Positions 1,345 to 6,921 of a stretch of 64,000 bases of DNA are shown here, in pieces. Under the pieces are notes generated by a model. It did not search any database, was not told the origin of the DNA, and saw only the letters and a list, made by a program, of their open reading frames with translations. Source of the stretch: Patescibacteria group bacterium (lineage in GTDB: Bacteria > Patescibacteriota > Patescibacteriia > UBA2591 > UBA6264); assembly GCA_021735685.1 (NCBI GenBank), contig JAIPGN010000001.1:15994-79993 (forward strand), in the 5' to 3' direction. Numbering within the stretch: position 1 is the stretch's first letter; each line of letters begins with the position of its first letter. The position numbers and the translations under genes were made by a program.

Positions 1345-2890
1345 AAACTTTTTTTAAAAATTCAAAAACATCTTTTTTACTCTTCAGCTTACCATTTAAT
1401 TGTTCTTCTCTTACTAAACTTAATAACTTCCCTATTTGCGGGCCGGGAGAAAGATTGAATTCTTTTATTAATTCGTGACCATTGACTAAAGGGGCGGGTA
1501 ATTTTTGTTCATTTTTTTTCTGATATTTTTTGGCTCGCAAGGAATTAATCCGATCCAACATTTTATAAAAATCAGTAAAATTTGGTTGACCAGAAGGAGG
1601 AACTGTGGCTGAAATATCTAGAAAGGATAATTTTAACAAATCTAAACCTGGTTTCTGTGGATTAAAAAAGTACTTTTCTATAGTAGAAGCCTTCATGTCT
1701 TCAATGCGTCCTTGAGAAAAAAGCATATGGTGATCAATAAGCCAAACCACGTTATCTATATTAATTCCTAATTTCGGCGGACTAGATAATTTCAAGCGCT
1801 GACAAATTTTTTCGGCCATTTCTCCACCGCGCACATCATGTTCGTTAAAACGAAGACGGTCAACATGGTCTTGAGCTGGGGTCTGAATAGTATAGGGTTT
1901 TCCTATATCATGAAAAATAACAGATAAAATTAATTGTAAAGAAAATTTTCGTGTTTTAAATTCTCGAAAAAAAGAAGGGGAATATAAATTTTTTAAAGCT
2001 AAACGAGTGTGAACCCAAACGTCTCCTTCAGAATGCCAATTCTGAGGTTGAGGACAGCCCTTCATTTTTAATATCTCAGGCATTAATTTTTGAAAAGCTC
2101 CACTTTGATCATAAAGATCAAAAGCTCTTAAGGGATGAGCCAAAAAAGCGGATAAAAATTCTTTAGCAATTACTTCATAAGGAACAGTTTGCCTTTTTGA
2201 AGTAAAAAGACAAGGAATATTCTTTTTAATCGCTTGCCAAGTTTCTCTTTCTATTTTCCACTTTGGATTAACCTTGTTACAACTTAACTGACAAACAAAT
2301 CTAATTCCTCGCAAAAGACGAGAATAATCTTCGGCAAATCTTTTCTCAGGTTGACCCACGCTTTTAATAACTTTGGCTTTTAGATCTTTCTGTCCCTGAT
2401 AAGGATCAATTAGAATAAATTTTTTTAAAATTCCAAAATTTAATTCTACGGCCATGCTATTTACCGTAAAATCACGACGACTTAAATCTTCTTCAATTGG
2501 CAATTGAGAGTCGTATTGAGCTTCCACATCTCGATAACCTCCAGTTTCAAAACTAAAATCTTGACGAGGAAGAGCGAAATCGATCTCTGAAAAAAAAGCT
2601 TGCTTAAAAGGAGTAAATTTAAGAACACCAAAGTTTTGTCCCACTAAATTAACTTTTCCGTGCAAAGATAAAAAATTTTCTAACTGCTTTAAAGAAAGAT
2701 TACGTACCACAAAATCATAATCTTGTGTGGGAACAGATAAAAAAAGATCTCGCACTGCTCCTCCTACTAAATAAATTTGAGCAGAAGGATATTCTTTTTT
2801 TAATTTTCTTAAAAAAAAGAAACTTTTTTTTCTAAACAAAAGTTTCAATTTAAAAAAAAGAAAAAATTTATTTTTAAAAAACGGAAACAT
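1322..2890 (-). CDS. cca: CCA-adding tRNA nucleotidyltransferase (Pol-beta head + HD domain)
   Basis: 522 aa. Nucleotidyltransferase motif LVGGAVRDLFL, and a C-terminal HD motif (FHDIGKP). Confidence 0.7.
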   Translation of the reverse strand: MFPFFKNKFFLFFKLKLLFRKKSFFFLRKLKKEYPSAQIYLVGGAVRDLFLSVPTQDYDFVVRNLSLKQLENFLSLHGKVNLVGQNFGVLKFTPFKQAFFSEIDFALPRQDFSFETGGYRDVEAQYDSQLPIEEDLSRRDFTVNSMAVELNFGILKKFILIDPYQGQKDLKAKVIKSVGQPEKRFAEDYSRLLRGIRFVCQLSCNKVNPKWKIERETWQAIKKNIPCLFTSKRQTVPYEVIAKEFLSAFLAHPLRAFDLYDQSGAFQKLMPEILKMKGCPQPQNWHSEGDVWVHTRLALKNLYSPSFFREFKTRKFSLQLILSVIFHDIGKPYTIQTPAQDHVDRLRFNEHDVRGGEMAEKICQRLKLSSPPKLGINIDNVVWLIDHHMLFSQGRIEDMKASTIEKYFFNPQKPGLDLLKLSFLDISATVPPSGQPNFTDFYKMLDRINSLRAKKYQKKNEQKLPAPLVNGHELIKEFNLSPGPQIGKLLSLVREEQLNGKLKSKKDVFEFLKKVYASWRKD

Positions 2891-2952
2891 CTAAAAATTT
2901 TAATTATTTAATTGGGGTCAGACCTTAAACTTACCCTTTCTTTTACTAAGAG

Positions 2953-3024
2953 TGGGCCCGGAAGGAATTGAACCTTCGACCTCTTCGATGTCAACGAAGC
3001 GTTCTACCACTGAACCACGAGCCC
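2953..3024 (-). tRNA. tRNA-Val (anticodon GAC)
   Basis: Reverse complement folds as a cloverleaf: acceptor GGGCTCG/CGGGCCC, D-arm TGGTTCAGTGGTAGAACG, anticodon stem CTTCG/CGAAG with loop TTGACAT, T-arm GGTTCAATTCC. CCA is not encoded. Confidence 0.8.
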
Positions 3025-3066
3025 TCAAGAAATAAAATTTTTTCTTAGTTAAACCAAAACCCAAAA

Positions 3067-3103
3067 ATGTCAACGAAGCGTTCTACCACTGAACCACGAG
3101 CCC
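3067..3103 (-). pseudogene. truncated copy of the tRNA-Val 5' half (nt 1-37/38), located 42 nt upstream of the intact gene
   Basis: 37 nt (atgtcaac...cacgagccc) identical to the 5' half of the adjacent tRNA-Val. Identity stops at the 3' side of the anticodon loop. Confidence 0.7.
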
Positions 3104-3232
3104 ACATCATTAAAATCTAAAGCCTAAATTCTAAACCTAAATAAGCCAAGATATCAATTAACCGCATTCTGGAATGGTTTAATGACGTACTTAAATAAAT
3201 GATTCTACTTGAACTTATTTTATCAAAAAATT

Positions 3233-3751
3233 TTAAATTTTGCCAGTGTTCACTGGTGTTTGATGCTCAAAAACAGCTAATTGATTAAATCCCATCTGAA
3301 ATTTTTTAAATTTTTTAACAACAAAACCTGTTTTTTCCGCCAAATCATAGATTTCTTTTTTGCTCCAATAATGTTTGTGTTCGGCAATATTTTTCTTATC
3401 CACAATGCCAAGAAATGCCCAAAATTCTAAAACAGGTTTTGCTATTTTGGTAGGCGTTGTCAAAAAGATTCTTCCATTTTTATTCAATATTTTCTTAAAT
3501 TTGCGAAATATTTTAAACACTTCTTTAGTTTCTATATGCTCTATTGTCGCCAAACTTACGATTGTATCAAAAAAGGCATTCTCCGTAATAAAACGACTAT
3601 GATTGACAAAAAAATATTTGCCGATGACTAATTTTTCTAATTCTCCTTTGTTTCCACCAAAATCTAAAACCTTGCCAACAAGATATGGCCTGGCCATCCT
3701 AAAACGATAATTTTGTAAAAATTTTTCTAAAAACATTGAGCTGTCAATCAT
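3233..3751 (-). CDS. class I SAM-dependent methyltransferase
   Basis: 172 aa. Glycine-rich SAM motif VLDFGGNKG and Methyltransf_11/23-like downstream blocks (…RIFLTTP…). Confidence 0.55.
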   Translation of the reverse strand: MIDSSMFLEKFLQNYRFRMARPYLVGKVLDFGGNKGELEKLVIGKYFFVNHSRFITENAFFDTIVSLATIEHIETKEVFKIFRKFKKILNKNGRIFLTTPTKIAKPVLEFWAFLGIVDKKNIAEHKHYWSKKEIYDLAEKTGFVVKKFKKFQMGFNQLAVFEHQTPVNTGKI

Positions 3752-3817
3752 GTAATCATTTTAAAAATTGACAATTTGCATAATTTATAATTTTTTCGAT
3801 AAAGTTTTAACCTCACC

Positions 3818-4390
3818 CTATTTAATAAAATTTTTCCACATTTGACTTGCCCGTGGCTTTGTGTCGCCAACATATTTACTTCCTATTTCTCTTGAATACG
3901 GCTTTTGGCACTCTGATGACAACTCTTCAAAGGCCATTTGCGCGATTGGCATTTTATAATAAAGCAAAATAGGCATATTTGCTGTGTTATGAAGCTCAAG
4001 CGTCATTTTTAGAGAATTGCCTGGATCAAGAAAGCCAGCAGTAACATGAATGAGCATGCCCATTCGGCCCACCGAACTTTTCCCCTCTAATCTACCAACA
4101 TATCTTGAAGAAACGCCAGTTATTTCATAAATTAACCCAAGAGCAAATTCTCCAGGGTGAAGCACAAATGGTTGCTTATTATCAATCATAAATTCCTTCA
4201 TCATGCCGTCCATGGGCTTTTTGGGATCAATGACATAGTTTGATTTAGTGTCAAAAATCAAAAAATGTTTATCCAAGTGTAAATCTACTGACGCTGGCTG
4301 TAAATATCTTTCGTCAAAAGGTTCTATGGTTATGTCACCGCGATTAATCGCTTCTTTAATATTTTTATCAGATAAAATCATAAAAATCAA
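3818..4390 (-). CDS. dcd: dCTP deaminase
   Basis: 190 aa. dUTPase/dCTP deaminase fold motifs (SVDLHL…, …GRLEGKSSVGRMG…, …AGFLDPG…). Confidence 0.8.
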   Translation of the reverse strand: MIFMILSDKNIKEAINRGDITIEPFDERYLQPASVDLHLDKHFLIFDTKSNYVIDPKKPMDGMMKEFMIDNKQPFVLHPGEFALGLIYEITGVSSRYVGRLEGKSSVGRMGMLIHVTAGFLDPGNSLKMTLELHNTANMPILLYYKMPIAQMAFEELSSECQKPYSREIGSKYVGDTKPRASQMWKNFIK

Positions 4391-4647
4391 AAATTTAAGA
4401 ATTGTTTCTGAGGGCTCGCTCCAACCCCTTATATTTTACCATTAATTTCGTTTTCTAATCTTTTAAAAAAATTTAAGAAAAAATTGAAATATAGTGAAAC
4501 TTCCATTAAGCTCCGATGTCATACAAAATTAAGATATAAGCTATCAATAAAACTAAAAATATCAATCTACTGATTTAAGTTTACCATGTTTTCTTAAAAA
4601 TATACAAAAATAAAGTTAAGAAATTACAGCATTAAAACTAAAAAACA

Positions 4648-4692
4648 TATTAAAAAGACCTGTTCGTGCGGAATAGGCCTTTAATAAATATA
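4648..4692 (-). terminator. putative Rho-independent terminator downstream of tRNA-Ile
   Basis: On the minus strand, directly after the tRNA 3' end: an imperfect hairpin (GGCCUAUUC…GAACAGGUC) followed by a UUUUUAAU run. Confidence 0.3.
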
Positions 4693-4694
4693 AA

Positions 4695-4769
4695 TGGTGG
4701 GCGTGGAAGGAGTCGAACCTTCGACCTCTTCTTTATCAGAGAAGCGTTCTACCGCTGAACCACACGCCC
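4695..4769 (-). tRNA. tRNA-Ile (anticodon GAT), CCA encoded
   Basis: Reverse complement: acceptor GGGCGTG/CACGCCC, anticodon stem CTTCT/AGAAG with loop CTGATAA, T-arm GGTTCGACTCC, then an encoded CCA. It sits directly downstream of the 16S rRNA, as in rRNA operons. Confidence 0.85.
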
Positions 4770-4809
4770 AAAAATTCGTTTAAAATTTGAAAGATAAAAA
4801 AATATTAAA

Positions 4810-4883
4810 ATCAGAGAAGCGTTCCCTGTCTATCGGTTTATCTGCCGAAGGCAGACAGGCAGGTACCGCTGAACCACACGCCC
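4810..4883 (-). pseudogene. truncated copy of the tRNA-Ile 5' half with a 39-nt hairpin insertion in the D-loop, 40 nt upstream of the intact gene
   Basis: Matches tRNA-Ile nt 1 to about 36 (GGGCGTGTGGTTCAGCGGTA…GAACGCTTCTCTGAT). It is interrupted by cctgcctgtctgccttcggcagataaaccgatagacagg, which contains the inverted repeat cctgtctgcc/ggcagacagg. Confidence 0.7.
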
Positions 4884-5084
4884 ATATCATTAAATTCTAA
4901 ATTCTAAAATCTAAAAGCACTAATCAAAATTATAACAAAAAAGAAAATAATTTCAATGCTTCTAACAAAAATAACCGGTTAAAACCGGTTATTTGCTCTA
5001 TAAATGAAAGACTTAGCAAAGACAGAGAAGTCGGCCATAGTTCTTATTCCTTGAGAATAAGAACTTATAATTTTTCCTCTAAAT

Positions 5085-6603
<1,519 letters not shown>

Positions 6604-6921
6604 AAAATAGAAAAATTTCTTTCAGTCAAAAAAGTTAAATAAATAACACCTTTGACCATTCAGTTAGATCACTGAATGCCCGGTCAAATGACCAAGTAAA
6701 GTTAAATTTTCTAAAAGATATTTGACCATAACTCTCTTTTAAAATAAAAGAATTTTATGGTTTTTTGATCATTAATAGATCAATTCTCTGTCTTCGCTGA
6801 ACCTTTCATTTATTTTTATTTAATTGTAAAGAACAAAAAAGCATTTTAACATGCTAACAAAACAATAATCTAACAAAAATTTATTTTTTATTCAAGTGTT
6901 CAAAAATCAAATTTTTAATTA

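Follow-up and report, generated by a model that had tools for sequence, protein, structure and literature searches.

The DNA analyzed here, which we refer to as the window, is a 64,000-nt stretch of a contig from a Patescibacteria group bacterium. It is low in G+C and its proteins match Patescibacteria. A tRNA-Val(GAC) gene lies on the minus strand near its left end, in the neighborhood of cmk and genes for an RluD-type synthase, a CCA enzyme, a methyltransferase, dCTP deaminase, TrmD, a KH protein and S16, with rhamnose-pathway genes, IF-2, VanW and Hsp20 as further neighbors. The gene is preceded by a partial copy of itself, and the locus is arranged as follows:

2952/2953-3024, minus strand: intact tRNA-Val(GAC), no encoded CCA (ARAGORN; Rfam tRNA, 72.6 bits)
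3025-3066, minus strand: 42-nt A/T-rich spacer, probably the native-type 5' leader of tRNA-Val, by analogy with the tRNA-Ile locus
3067-3103, minus strand: truncated copy of tRNA-Val nt 1-38, 37/37 identical and without a palindrome (repeat comparison)
3104-3121, minus strand: leader motif TTTAGATTTTAATGATGT, which abuts nt 1 of the Val copy and is common to the tRNA-Ile locus (alignment)
3128-3157, minus strand: candidate sigma-70-like promoter TTGATA-18-TAGAAT (10/12) upstream of the Val copy (consensus match only)

A preliminary description of this DNA had reported a copy of tRNA-Val nt 1-38 lying 42 nt upstream of the gene, and that observation stands. The window contains the 37-mer GGGCTCGTGGTTCAGTGGTAGAACGCTTCGTTGACAT in just two places, 2988-3024 and 3067-3103, both times on the minus strand, with none expected from shuffled sequence (0 in 100 shuffles). 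These 37 nt cover tRNA positions 1-38, one D-loop position being missing from this particular tRNA. The repeat has a period of 79 nt and its identity is confined to the tRNA part, the two leaders sharing a short A/T-rich motif.

Mis-joins are able to create short repeats during assembly, and an assembly duplication was therefore one possible source of the half copy. Logan contigs of the same strain (SRR12088349) do break at the repeat edges (L043 at its head, L044 at its tail), which is expected for a true 37-nt repeat. Assemblies made independently from at least five sequencing runs, and covering two strains, show the arrangement, and in a sister strain (SRR26469880 and related runs) two single contigs, L045 and L047, cross the leader, the copy, the spacer and the intact gene. 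The chance that the half copy is an artefact is negligible.

The preliminary description had also proposed that the end of the identity in the anticodon loop marks an integrase att-site scar, or an event related to a tRNA intron or a split tRNA. Crossovers and introns are known to occur at the anticodon loop of tRNA genes, and group I introns are present in tRNA-Asn anticodon loops of related Patescibacteria (L135); both facts speak for such an origin. Integrase-mediated integration duplicates the 3' part of a tRNA gene and leaves the element between the repeats, whereas here the 5' part is duplicated and 42 nt of native leader, not an integrated element, separate the copies; neither a tyrosine integrase nor another recombinase was found within ~15 kb of the site. 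The tRNA downstream is whole, and positions 2850-5100 gave no match to an intron model even at E ≤ 10. We regard an att scar, or the remnant of an intron or a split tRNA, as very improbable, and these parts of the preliminary description do not hold.

A second partial copy, overlooked in the preliminary description, precedes the tRNA-Ile(GAT) gene of the same window:

4695-4769, minus strand: intact tRNA-Ile(GAT), 84% identical to tRNA-Val (ARAGORN, Rfam)
4770-4809, minus strand: 40-nt spacer, apparently the native-type leader of tRNA-Ile, homologous in position to the leader of empty loci
4810-4824, minus strand: copy of tRNA-Ile nt 21-35 (GAACGCTTCTCTGAT), 15/15 identical (repeat comparison)
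4825-4863, minus strand: 39-nt GC-rich hairpin at D-loop position 20/21 of the Ile copy, homologous to an insert in the Val copy of the sister strain and a derivative of the family palindrome described below
4864-4883, minus strand: copy of tRNA-Ile nt 1-20, 20/20 identical (repeat comparison)
4884-4901, minus strand: leader motif TTTAGAATTTAATGATAT, abutting the Ile copy (shared-motif search)
4929-4956, minus strand: candidate sigma-70-like promoter TTGAAA-16-TATAAT with a TG extension (11/12; consensus match)

The conserved A/T-rich motif that had been described upstream of the Val copy is thus found at both loci, as TTTAGAWTTTAATGATRT directly upstream of the partial copies at 3104-3121 (Val) and 4884-4901 (Ile). 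A promoter upstream of the half copy had been envisaged as well, and both partial copies do lie downstream of promoter-like sites, with none inside either spacer, so that the leader should contain the half copy. These promoter calls are consensus matches only (10 found vs. 8.5 expected in shuffles); the Ile candidate is conserved in the relatives L136, L137, L138, L141, and L144. No partial copy was found at the remaining three tRNAs of the window, and no further copy of the palindrome or of the Ile hairpin was detected elsewhere in it. A tblastn search of the window returned no GIY-YIG homologue, and Rfam assigned no known RNA family to the partial copy or the hairpin, its sub-threshold chance matches overlapping tRNAs only.

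Comparison with the sister strain bears on how the Val copy came to be so perfect. Its Val copy consists of GGGCTTGTGGTTCAGTAGT, a 60-nt palindromic insert and GAACGCTTCGTTGACAT (L045, L047), and the insert, which is located at 20/21, and the Ile hairpin of the window are homologous. The two strains differ by a single SNP in ~110 aligned flanking bases (leader and spacer), whereas inside the Val copy they differ by two substitutions and the 60-nt insert, the window having the intact-gene sequence in all three cases. One conversion tract from the adjacent gene would have removed both the Val palindrome and the two mismatches, with the identity stopping where the homology ends, in the anticodon loop. 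In a more distant relative, L136, the decayed Val relic has the palindrome, which makes the palindrome ancestral there. From these comparisons the 37/37 Val copy of the window is best explained by recent gene conversion from the adjacent intact gene. Its perfect identity would then reflect this conversion and not the original duplication event.

A complete version of the arrangement lies just outside the window in the same genome. The same-strain contig L043 overlaps the left end of the window (its position x corresponds to window position 3018-x) and carries a tRNA-Phe gene ~0.9 kb beyond window position 1. On the same strand, a GGCAGG/CCTGCC palindrome, a copy of nt 21-39 and an 86-aa ORF lie upstream of this tRNA. 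The ORF encodes a GIY-YIG domain (Pfam E 4e-13) and its stop codon is inside the intact tRNA-Phe. A related locus, L048 (70% protein identity), consists of a promoter TTTACA-17-TATAAT, tRNA-Phe nt 1-20, the palindrome CCTGCCTGCCGGCAGGCAGG, a decayed nt 21-39, the ORF and tRNA-Phe. The orthologous ORFs of L043 and L048 have a dN/dS of 0.21 and the protein family comprises 4,505 cluster representatives, so the GIY-YIG ORF is a real gene under purifying selection. In the one ORF-bearing comparison of an occupied with an empty Phe locus, the tRNA-Phe is inverted in the cassette-bearing genomes and there is no simple insertion. The cassette may thus travel with its tRNA, and no simple model fits the inversion.

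To place these loci in a family, 62 homologues of the protein were aligned and 80 metagenomic loci were then fetched. Downstream sequence was sufficient for 64 distinct ORFs, 49 of which are accompanied on the same strand by a tRNA that starts -25 to +88 nt past the protein match; the tRNAs concerned are Asn, Arg (three anticodons), Thr, Lys, Leu, Met, and Phe. Of the ORFs that lack a downstream tRNA call, at least six have a tRNA-Asn with an insert in its anticodon loop, and in L135 the equivalent insert is a confirmed group I intron. The palindrome CCTGCCTGCCGGCAGGCAGG was detected within 140 nt upstream of the ORF in 66/72 evaluable non-redundant loci (the exact 20-mer in 41 of the 66), and in this 72-locus set it usually sits inside a truncated copy of the tRNA that follows. 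Its position on the tRNA could be mapped in 31 cases, falling after nt 20-23 in 27, after nt 9 in three and after nt 12 in one. Counted from the side of the palindromes in these loci, 78/89 lie within 150 nt of the ORF and 11/89 are solo. The truncated same-strand copies run from nt 1 to ~28-47, and such a 5' copy is found upstream of nearly every family ORF, over ten tRNA species (nine anticodon families) and two phyla. Olivibacter (Bacteroidota), for example, has the same structure with an identical palindrome at tRNA-Arg(CCT) (L131). Mirror forms also exist, in which an intact tRNA is followed by the ORF and then by a 3' partial copy with the palindrome (L106, L109), as do tandem cassette arrays (L061, L069, L075) and ORF-less modules (L075, L083). 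The survey of other tRNA loci and of relatives that the preliminary description had called for recovered the same architecture at tRNA-Ile, at tRNA-Phe, in metagenomic loci and in relatives. The recurrence of this class, with its ties to a mobile or selfish element, supports the view of that description that the duplication is not random.

The family protein is ~80 aa long, consists of the catalytic domain only and is UPF0213/SLX1-like. The closest solved structures are the UPF0213 proteins 1ywl (2.7e-8) and 1zg2 (5e-7), followed by SLX1 (7cq2, 9e-5). In the family alignment the Y, Y-G, R, H-N, and E positions, which we take to be the GIY-YIG catalytic residues, are invariant or nearly so. A profile search yielded 4,505 cluster representatives at E ≤ 1e-10, and the best 149 among these include 27 with the translated palindrome in an N-terminal extension. 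Viral contigs gave a single match, L135, which is the same cassette at tRNA-Asn. Palindrome variants of the G-U-compatible and the A-C-creating kind are both present, without a signal of an RNA-level role. GIY-YIG ORFs have been noted in non-intron insertions of CPR rRNA genes (PMC11270868). A literature search, limited in extent and not proof of novelty, found no description of the palindrome or of small tRNA-linked GIY-YIG cassettes; the element is of a widespread and apparently undescribed kind.

The Val copy at 3067-3103 shares with this family the truncated 5' part on the same strand upstream of an intact tRNA. The palindrome is missing from the Val copy of the window, and so is a GIY-YIG ORF, which is present between copy and tRNA at Phe and absent at both Val and Ile. 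Since the window holds no such ORF and the spacers are 40-42 nt, Val and Ile are ORF-less modules and not full members of the family. The link of Val to the family is indirect, established by way of three intermediates: the sister strain, L136 and the Ile module homologous to it.

Relatives of the window were reached through the CCA-enzyme gene that follows tRNA-Val, by way of homologous proteins and then the contigs encoding them; a search of genome contigs with the CCA enzyme returned matches of only 26-39% identity and no syntenic relative. In the relatives 16S, tRNA-Ile, tRNA-Val and the CCA gene are adjacent, and the two tRNA loci show a presence/absence polymorphism (percentages are the CCA-enzyme identity to the window):

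L141, 58%: Ile empty; Val empty
L138, 61%: Ile without a 5' copy but with a 3'-half copy downstream; Val empty
L144, 66%: Ile with 27 nt of leader and nt 1-38 without a palindrome, followed by 41 nt of leader and the gene; Val empty
L137, 67%: Ile with a module of the L144 type plus CTTGCCTGCCGGCAGGCAGG at 20/21; Val empty
L136, 84%: Ile a decayed relic; Val a decayed relic with palindrome

In L144 a 3'-half copy is also found downstream at Ile, and in the Val relic of L136 the palindrome stands directly before a remnant of nt 21-38, the 1-20 part having been lost. Breakpoints in the anticodon loop recur across these relatives, nt 38 being the last position of the 5' copies and nt ~35 the first of the 3' copies, and the significance that the preliminary description attached to the anticodon-loop end is upheld in this sense.

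The relatives also indicate what the spacers are. The parts of a complete cassette stand in the same order, and such a cassette is located at tRNA-Phe in the same genome, hence a GIY-YIG ORF could once have stood between copy and tRNA at Val or Ile and been deleted to leave the 40-42-nt spacer. The ends of the spacers (GAATTTTTG before GGG at Ile, ATTTCTTGA before GGG at Val) even faintly resemble the KEFLK codons that precede the tRNA in intact cassettes, but a resemblance of this kind is not significant in A/T-rich sequence. Furthermore, the Ile spacer of L137 and L144 shows homology over its whole length to the leader between promoter and tRNA in the unoccupied L138 and L141, which makes it native leader and not an ORF remnant, and an ORF was present at Ile or Val in 0/8 relatives examined. 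Such a degenerate cassette is improbable. The 42-nt spacer as the remnant of a deleted GIY-YIG ORF was dropped as a candidate on the native Ile leader of L138 and L141. By analogy with Ile, we infer that the 42-nt Val spacer is native tRNA leader too. The two 27-nt leader stretches that precede the copies in L144 show clear homology, with the copy displaced by 13-21 nt from a strict tandem, and from such alignments a duplicated piece of the tRNA leader is the best reading of the A/T-rich motif that the copies have upstream.

The tRNA-Ile and tRNA-Val genes are 84-90% identical across the window and its relatives, which marks them as recent paralogues. The Val module, which is homologous to the Ile module, is confined to the window, the sister strain and L136. 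Its leader and insert can be aligned with those at Ile, so that it probably derives from Ile by copying. The Ile copy matches its own gene at 35/35 positions in the window and at 36/38 in L144, while the leaders have diverged strongly between lineages, a combination that needs either repeated gene conversion or selection.

Selection would be expected if the half copy were a functional leader element that aids or regulates folding or processing of the pre-tRNA, or that serves as a decoy to some factor which binds or cleaves tRNA. The copies are near-identical to their own tRNA wherever Val and Ile differ, and the Ile copy persists over lineages with 66-84% CCA-enzyme identity. In the predicted fold of the Ile precursor, the upstream 5' strand pairs with the 3' acceptor strand of the tRNA and could compete with normal folding; the perfect Val copy might likewise vie with the genuine 5' half for pairing with the 3' half during folding. 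However, the z-score of the Ile fold is unremarkable (-1.9), and gene conversion is expected to homogenize adjacent repeats without selection. The copy is also missing at both tRNAs in L138 and L141 and at Val in L137 and L144, its 1-20 part is lost in L136, and inserts that vary in length and sequence break up the copies. A function in the leader therefore seems a rather poor prospect. The module is absent in some relatives, decayed in another and interrupted by variable inserts, and nothing points to a function. Most likely the Val half copy is transcribed within the pre-tRNA leader as a passenger without function, an inert scar that the host tolerates.

An ordinary local duplication of the leader and the tRNA 5' half, through slippage or unequal exchange, has more to recommend it. 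The palindrome would then be an independent REP-like mobile hairpin that prefers to insert between GGTA and G and survives only in the dispensable copy. Clean, palindrome-free copies are found at Ile in L144 and at Val in the window, the duplicated unit includes the leader and the spacer is native leader. The palindrome sits at exactly 20/21 in L137 and is missing in its close relative L144, and 11/89 palindromes are solo and away from ORFs. Slippage does not, however, predict a truncated 5' copy by nearly every family ORF at ten tRNA species in two phyla, nor anticodon-loop breakpoints that recur for 5' and 3' copies alike. The other three tRNAs of the window are without copies, and the copy in L144 is not strictly tandem, lying 13-21 nt upstream of the left boundary of its source. 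We consider this explanation unlikely as a whole, with a real share of the probability nonetheless; the Val/Ile duplication could be ordinary in origin, the palindrome arriving later.

The reading that we favor, and think reasonably probable, is that the Val half copy is an ORF-less module of the tRNA/palindrome/GIY-YIG element, brought about by duplication, transfer from Ile to Val and conversion, and carried as a passenger in the leader. The duplicated unit would comprise a piece of leader and tRNA nt 1-38, the 37-nt Val sequence being its upstream, truncated member. The truncated copy is usually split at D-loop position 20/21 by the 20-nt GC palindrome CCTGCCTGCCGGCAGGCAGG, and in complete cassettes the ~80-aa GIY-YIG nuclease gene and then the intact tRNA come after it. 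The Ile module may have arisen in an ancestor of the window genome and then been copied to the paralogous tRNA-Val, where the Val copy would later have been overwritten in the window strain by conversion from the adjacent intact gene. Transcription would start from the sigma-70-like promoter upstream of the copy, so that the half copy is carried in the 5' leader, and an RNase P cut at nt 1 of the intact tRNA would discard this leader together with the half copy.

As for the family as a whole, the movement of the element and the activity and substrate of its nuclease can be proposed from sequence patterns. The nuclease and/or the palindrome may target stem-loop junctions in the DNA of tRNA genes (D-loop 20/21 and the anticodon loop), with repair or insertion leaving a partial duplication of the target while one tRNA copy stays intact. 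More tentatively, the partial copies may mark a cross-phylum selfish element, composed of an SLX1-like GIY-YIG nuclease reduced to its catalytic domain and a conserved 20-nt palindrome, that targets tRNA stem-loop junctions and spares its host through partial target duplication or its own tRNA copy. We see this broader proposal as a possibility somewhat short of an even chance, and the Val and Ile ORF-less modules would then be non-autonomous or relic forms.

Several known systems resemble parts of this arrangement. Like GIY-YIG homing endonucleases, whether free-standing or encoded in introns (I-TevI, Seg), and tRNA group I introns, the cassette ties a nuclease gene to a conserved host gene and has a patchy distribution and multiple copies. 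Group I introns of bacterial tRNA share the anticodon-loop breakpoint, and in L135 an intron with an HNH ORF is located in the same tRNA-Asn. The cassette differs in having no intron RNA or splicing, in keeping host function by duplicating part of its target and in the conserved palindrome that its unit includes. Unlike I-TevI, its protein is a catalytic domain of ~80 aa without a DNA-binding domain that groups with UPF0213/SLX1, and it scores 21 bits against NCBIfam grpIintron_endo, where the cut-off is 56. The SLX1/UPF0213 (YhbQ-type) nucleases are the best sequence matches to the cassette protein among solved structures. SLX1 needs its partner SLX4 and acts in repair, and we know of no genomic link of SLX1/UPF0213 proteins to tRNA genes or to a palindrome.

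The att duplications of tyrosine integrases are alike in that an element lies at a tRNA gene and the intact tRNA is kept by means of a direct-repeat segment. Integrases reportedly duplicate the 3' tRNA segment and sit on a large element, whereas the cassette duplicates a 5' segment (3' in the mirror forms), has a unit of 0.1-0.4 kb and contains no integrase. In Allomyces mitochondria, a GIY-YIG ORF together with a foreign atp6 C-terminus forms a cassette that carries a replacement end for its host gene. Here too, a nuclease ORF lies between a displaced gene fragment and a complete functional gene, although the Allomyces-type cassettes concern the 3' ends of organellar protein genes and not the 5' parts of bacterial tRNAs with a palindrome and ORF-less versions. 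REP/RAYT, IS200/IS605 and the Rickettsia palindromic elements are comparable in that a short palindrome occupies a preferred target with no obvious target duplication, and in that such palindromes can sit inside RNA or protein genes and occur as solo copies. REP/RAYT and IS200/IS605 depend on an HUH/Y1 transposase in place of a GIY-YIG nuclease, and the cassette palindrome is nearly always in a truncated tRNA copy beside the nuclease gene. Finally, archaeal split and permuted tRNA genes also have a separate tRNA 5' half that ends in the anticodon loop; in contrast to them, the half copy described here has a complete tRNA gene 42 nt downstream and lacks both a complementary leader and a BHB motif, and it comes from a bacterium.

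What is probably an inert scar at one set of coordinates has led to a regular and abundant structure in Patescibacteria and cultured Bacteroidota, with thousands of protein clusters. Two ways are known in which a selfish element can occupy an essential gene, namely self-splicing (introns and inteins) and att-site restoration by integrases. Should tRNA gene DNA really be what the nuclease and the palindrome act on, a third way would be added to these. The class looks like a new form among selfish elements that occupy essential genes. It would account for a class of small proteins annotated as "GIY-YIG nuclease family protein," for gene predictions that run across the palindrome (PACRQAG or LPAGRQA peptides) and for contig breaks at tRNA genes in CPR assemblies. 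It could also offer a compact structure- or sequence-specific nuclease to characterize, with cultivable hosts in Olivibacter and Sphingobacterium. Among the tRNA genes of reduced genomes, the Val and Ile loci document ongoing gene conversion and the turnover of the Ile/Val paralogues.

A complete cassette, in which a truncated tRNA copy with a GC palindrome and a small GIY-YIG nuclease ORF precede the intact tRNA, lies just outside the window on L043, a metagenomic contig of the same strain that overlaps the window's left end:

L043 3836-4215, lying some 0.8-1.2 kb to the left of window position 1: complete cassette at tRNA-Phe(GAA)

Its order is palindrome, a copy of nt 21-39 and an 86-aa GIY-YIG ORF whose stop codon falls within tRNA-Phe(GAA); L043 itself terminates inside the palindrome. 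The orientation of tRNA-Phe is inverted in the cassette-bearing genomes (L043 3701-4215; L048 1015-2324) relative to the cassette-free ones (L141 4526-4790; L144 4561-4810), and the terminators of the two groups also differ; in both orientations the gene occupies the same Val(TAC)-YchF interval. The tRNA-Phe cassette and its tRNA may have been acquired jointly.

ORFs of this GIY-YIG family are often over-extended by gene callers (proteins P0186-P0314, P0022, and P0046, from the homologue searches). The extended calls read across the palindrome or run on into the tRNA; they yield PACRQAG or LPAGRQA peptides at the N-terminus and, from tRNA D-arm DNA, C-terminal tails (SSVVEQ or VAQR, for example).

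Within the window, a second partial copy lies upstream of tRNA-Ile(GAT) and adds to the preliminary description, which had dealt with the partial tRNA-Val copy:

Window 4810-4883, minus strand: partial copy of tRNA-Ile(GAT), comprising nt 1-20, a 39-nt GC hairpin and nt 21-35
Window 5000-5029 / 6784-6813: inverted repeat forming the 16S processing stem

The 16S rRNA gene (window 5081-6606) has no 23S after it. Beyond its processing stem is a hairpin with a T-run (aaccggttttaaccggtt-attttt; region 4929-5081), past which tRNA-Ile has a separate promoter-like site of its own.

tRNA-Val(GAC) and tRNA-Ile(GAT) share 84-90% identity (window 2952-3024 and 4695-4769; relatives L136 625-999 and L141 667-880), with most of their differences at acceptor pairs 5:68 and 6:67, at two pairs of the anticodon stem and at the anticodon itself. 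They are neighbors in relatives and are separated in the window by a dCTP deaminase and a methyltransferase gene. The two look like recent paralogues produced by anticodon remoulding. Two relatives carry a copy of the tRNA-Ile 3' half, spanning nt ~35-76 and the trailer, at a distance of 70-100 nt downstream from the intact gene (L138 2050-2095; L144 ~540-585); the anticodon loop is once more the breakpoint, and these copies have neither palindrome nor ORF.

A different arrangement is found at tRNA-Ala:

L137 5270-5597: different GIY-YIG ORF, upstream of tRNA-Ala

Inverted repeats of 17 nt (CCCCTCACATGGGAATT / AATTCCCATGTGAGGGG) bracket this ORF, as does a direct repeat (GGGGCCCATAG) consisting of the first ~11 nt of tRNA-Ala. 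The unit is a transposon-like variant on the theme of tRNA-linked GIY-YIG cassettes.

Many tRNA-Asn cassettes have a truncated copy whose anticodon-loop remnant, CTGTTAA, has turned into TGTTATAAT or TATAAT, a box positioned such that it could drive the nuclease ORF:

L054, L060, L065, L073, L076, L086, L098, and L127: -10-like box between palindrome and ORF start

Downstream of the GIY-YIG cassette of L135, the anticodon loop of tRNA-Asn(GTT) holds a group I intron with an HNH-type ORF (820-1420; RF00028, E 8e-21). Inserts occupy the same anticodon-loop position, downstream of the GIY-YIG ORF, at six loci (L076, L082, L088, L113, L119, and L129); of these, L076 and L113 were scanned against Rfam, and no intron family reached the gathering threshold in either. 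A single tRNA gene appears to carry a stack of two or more selfish elements.
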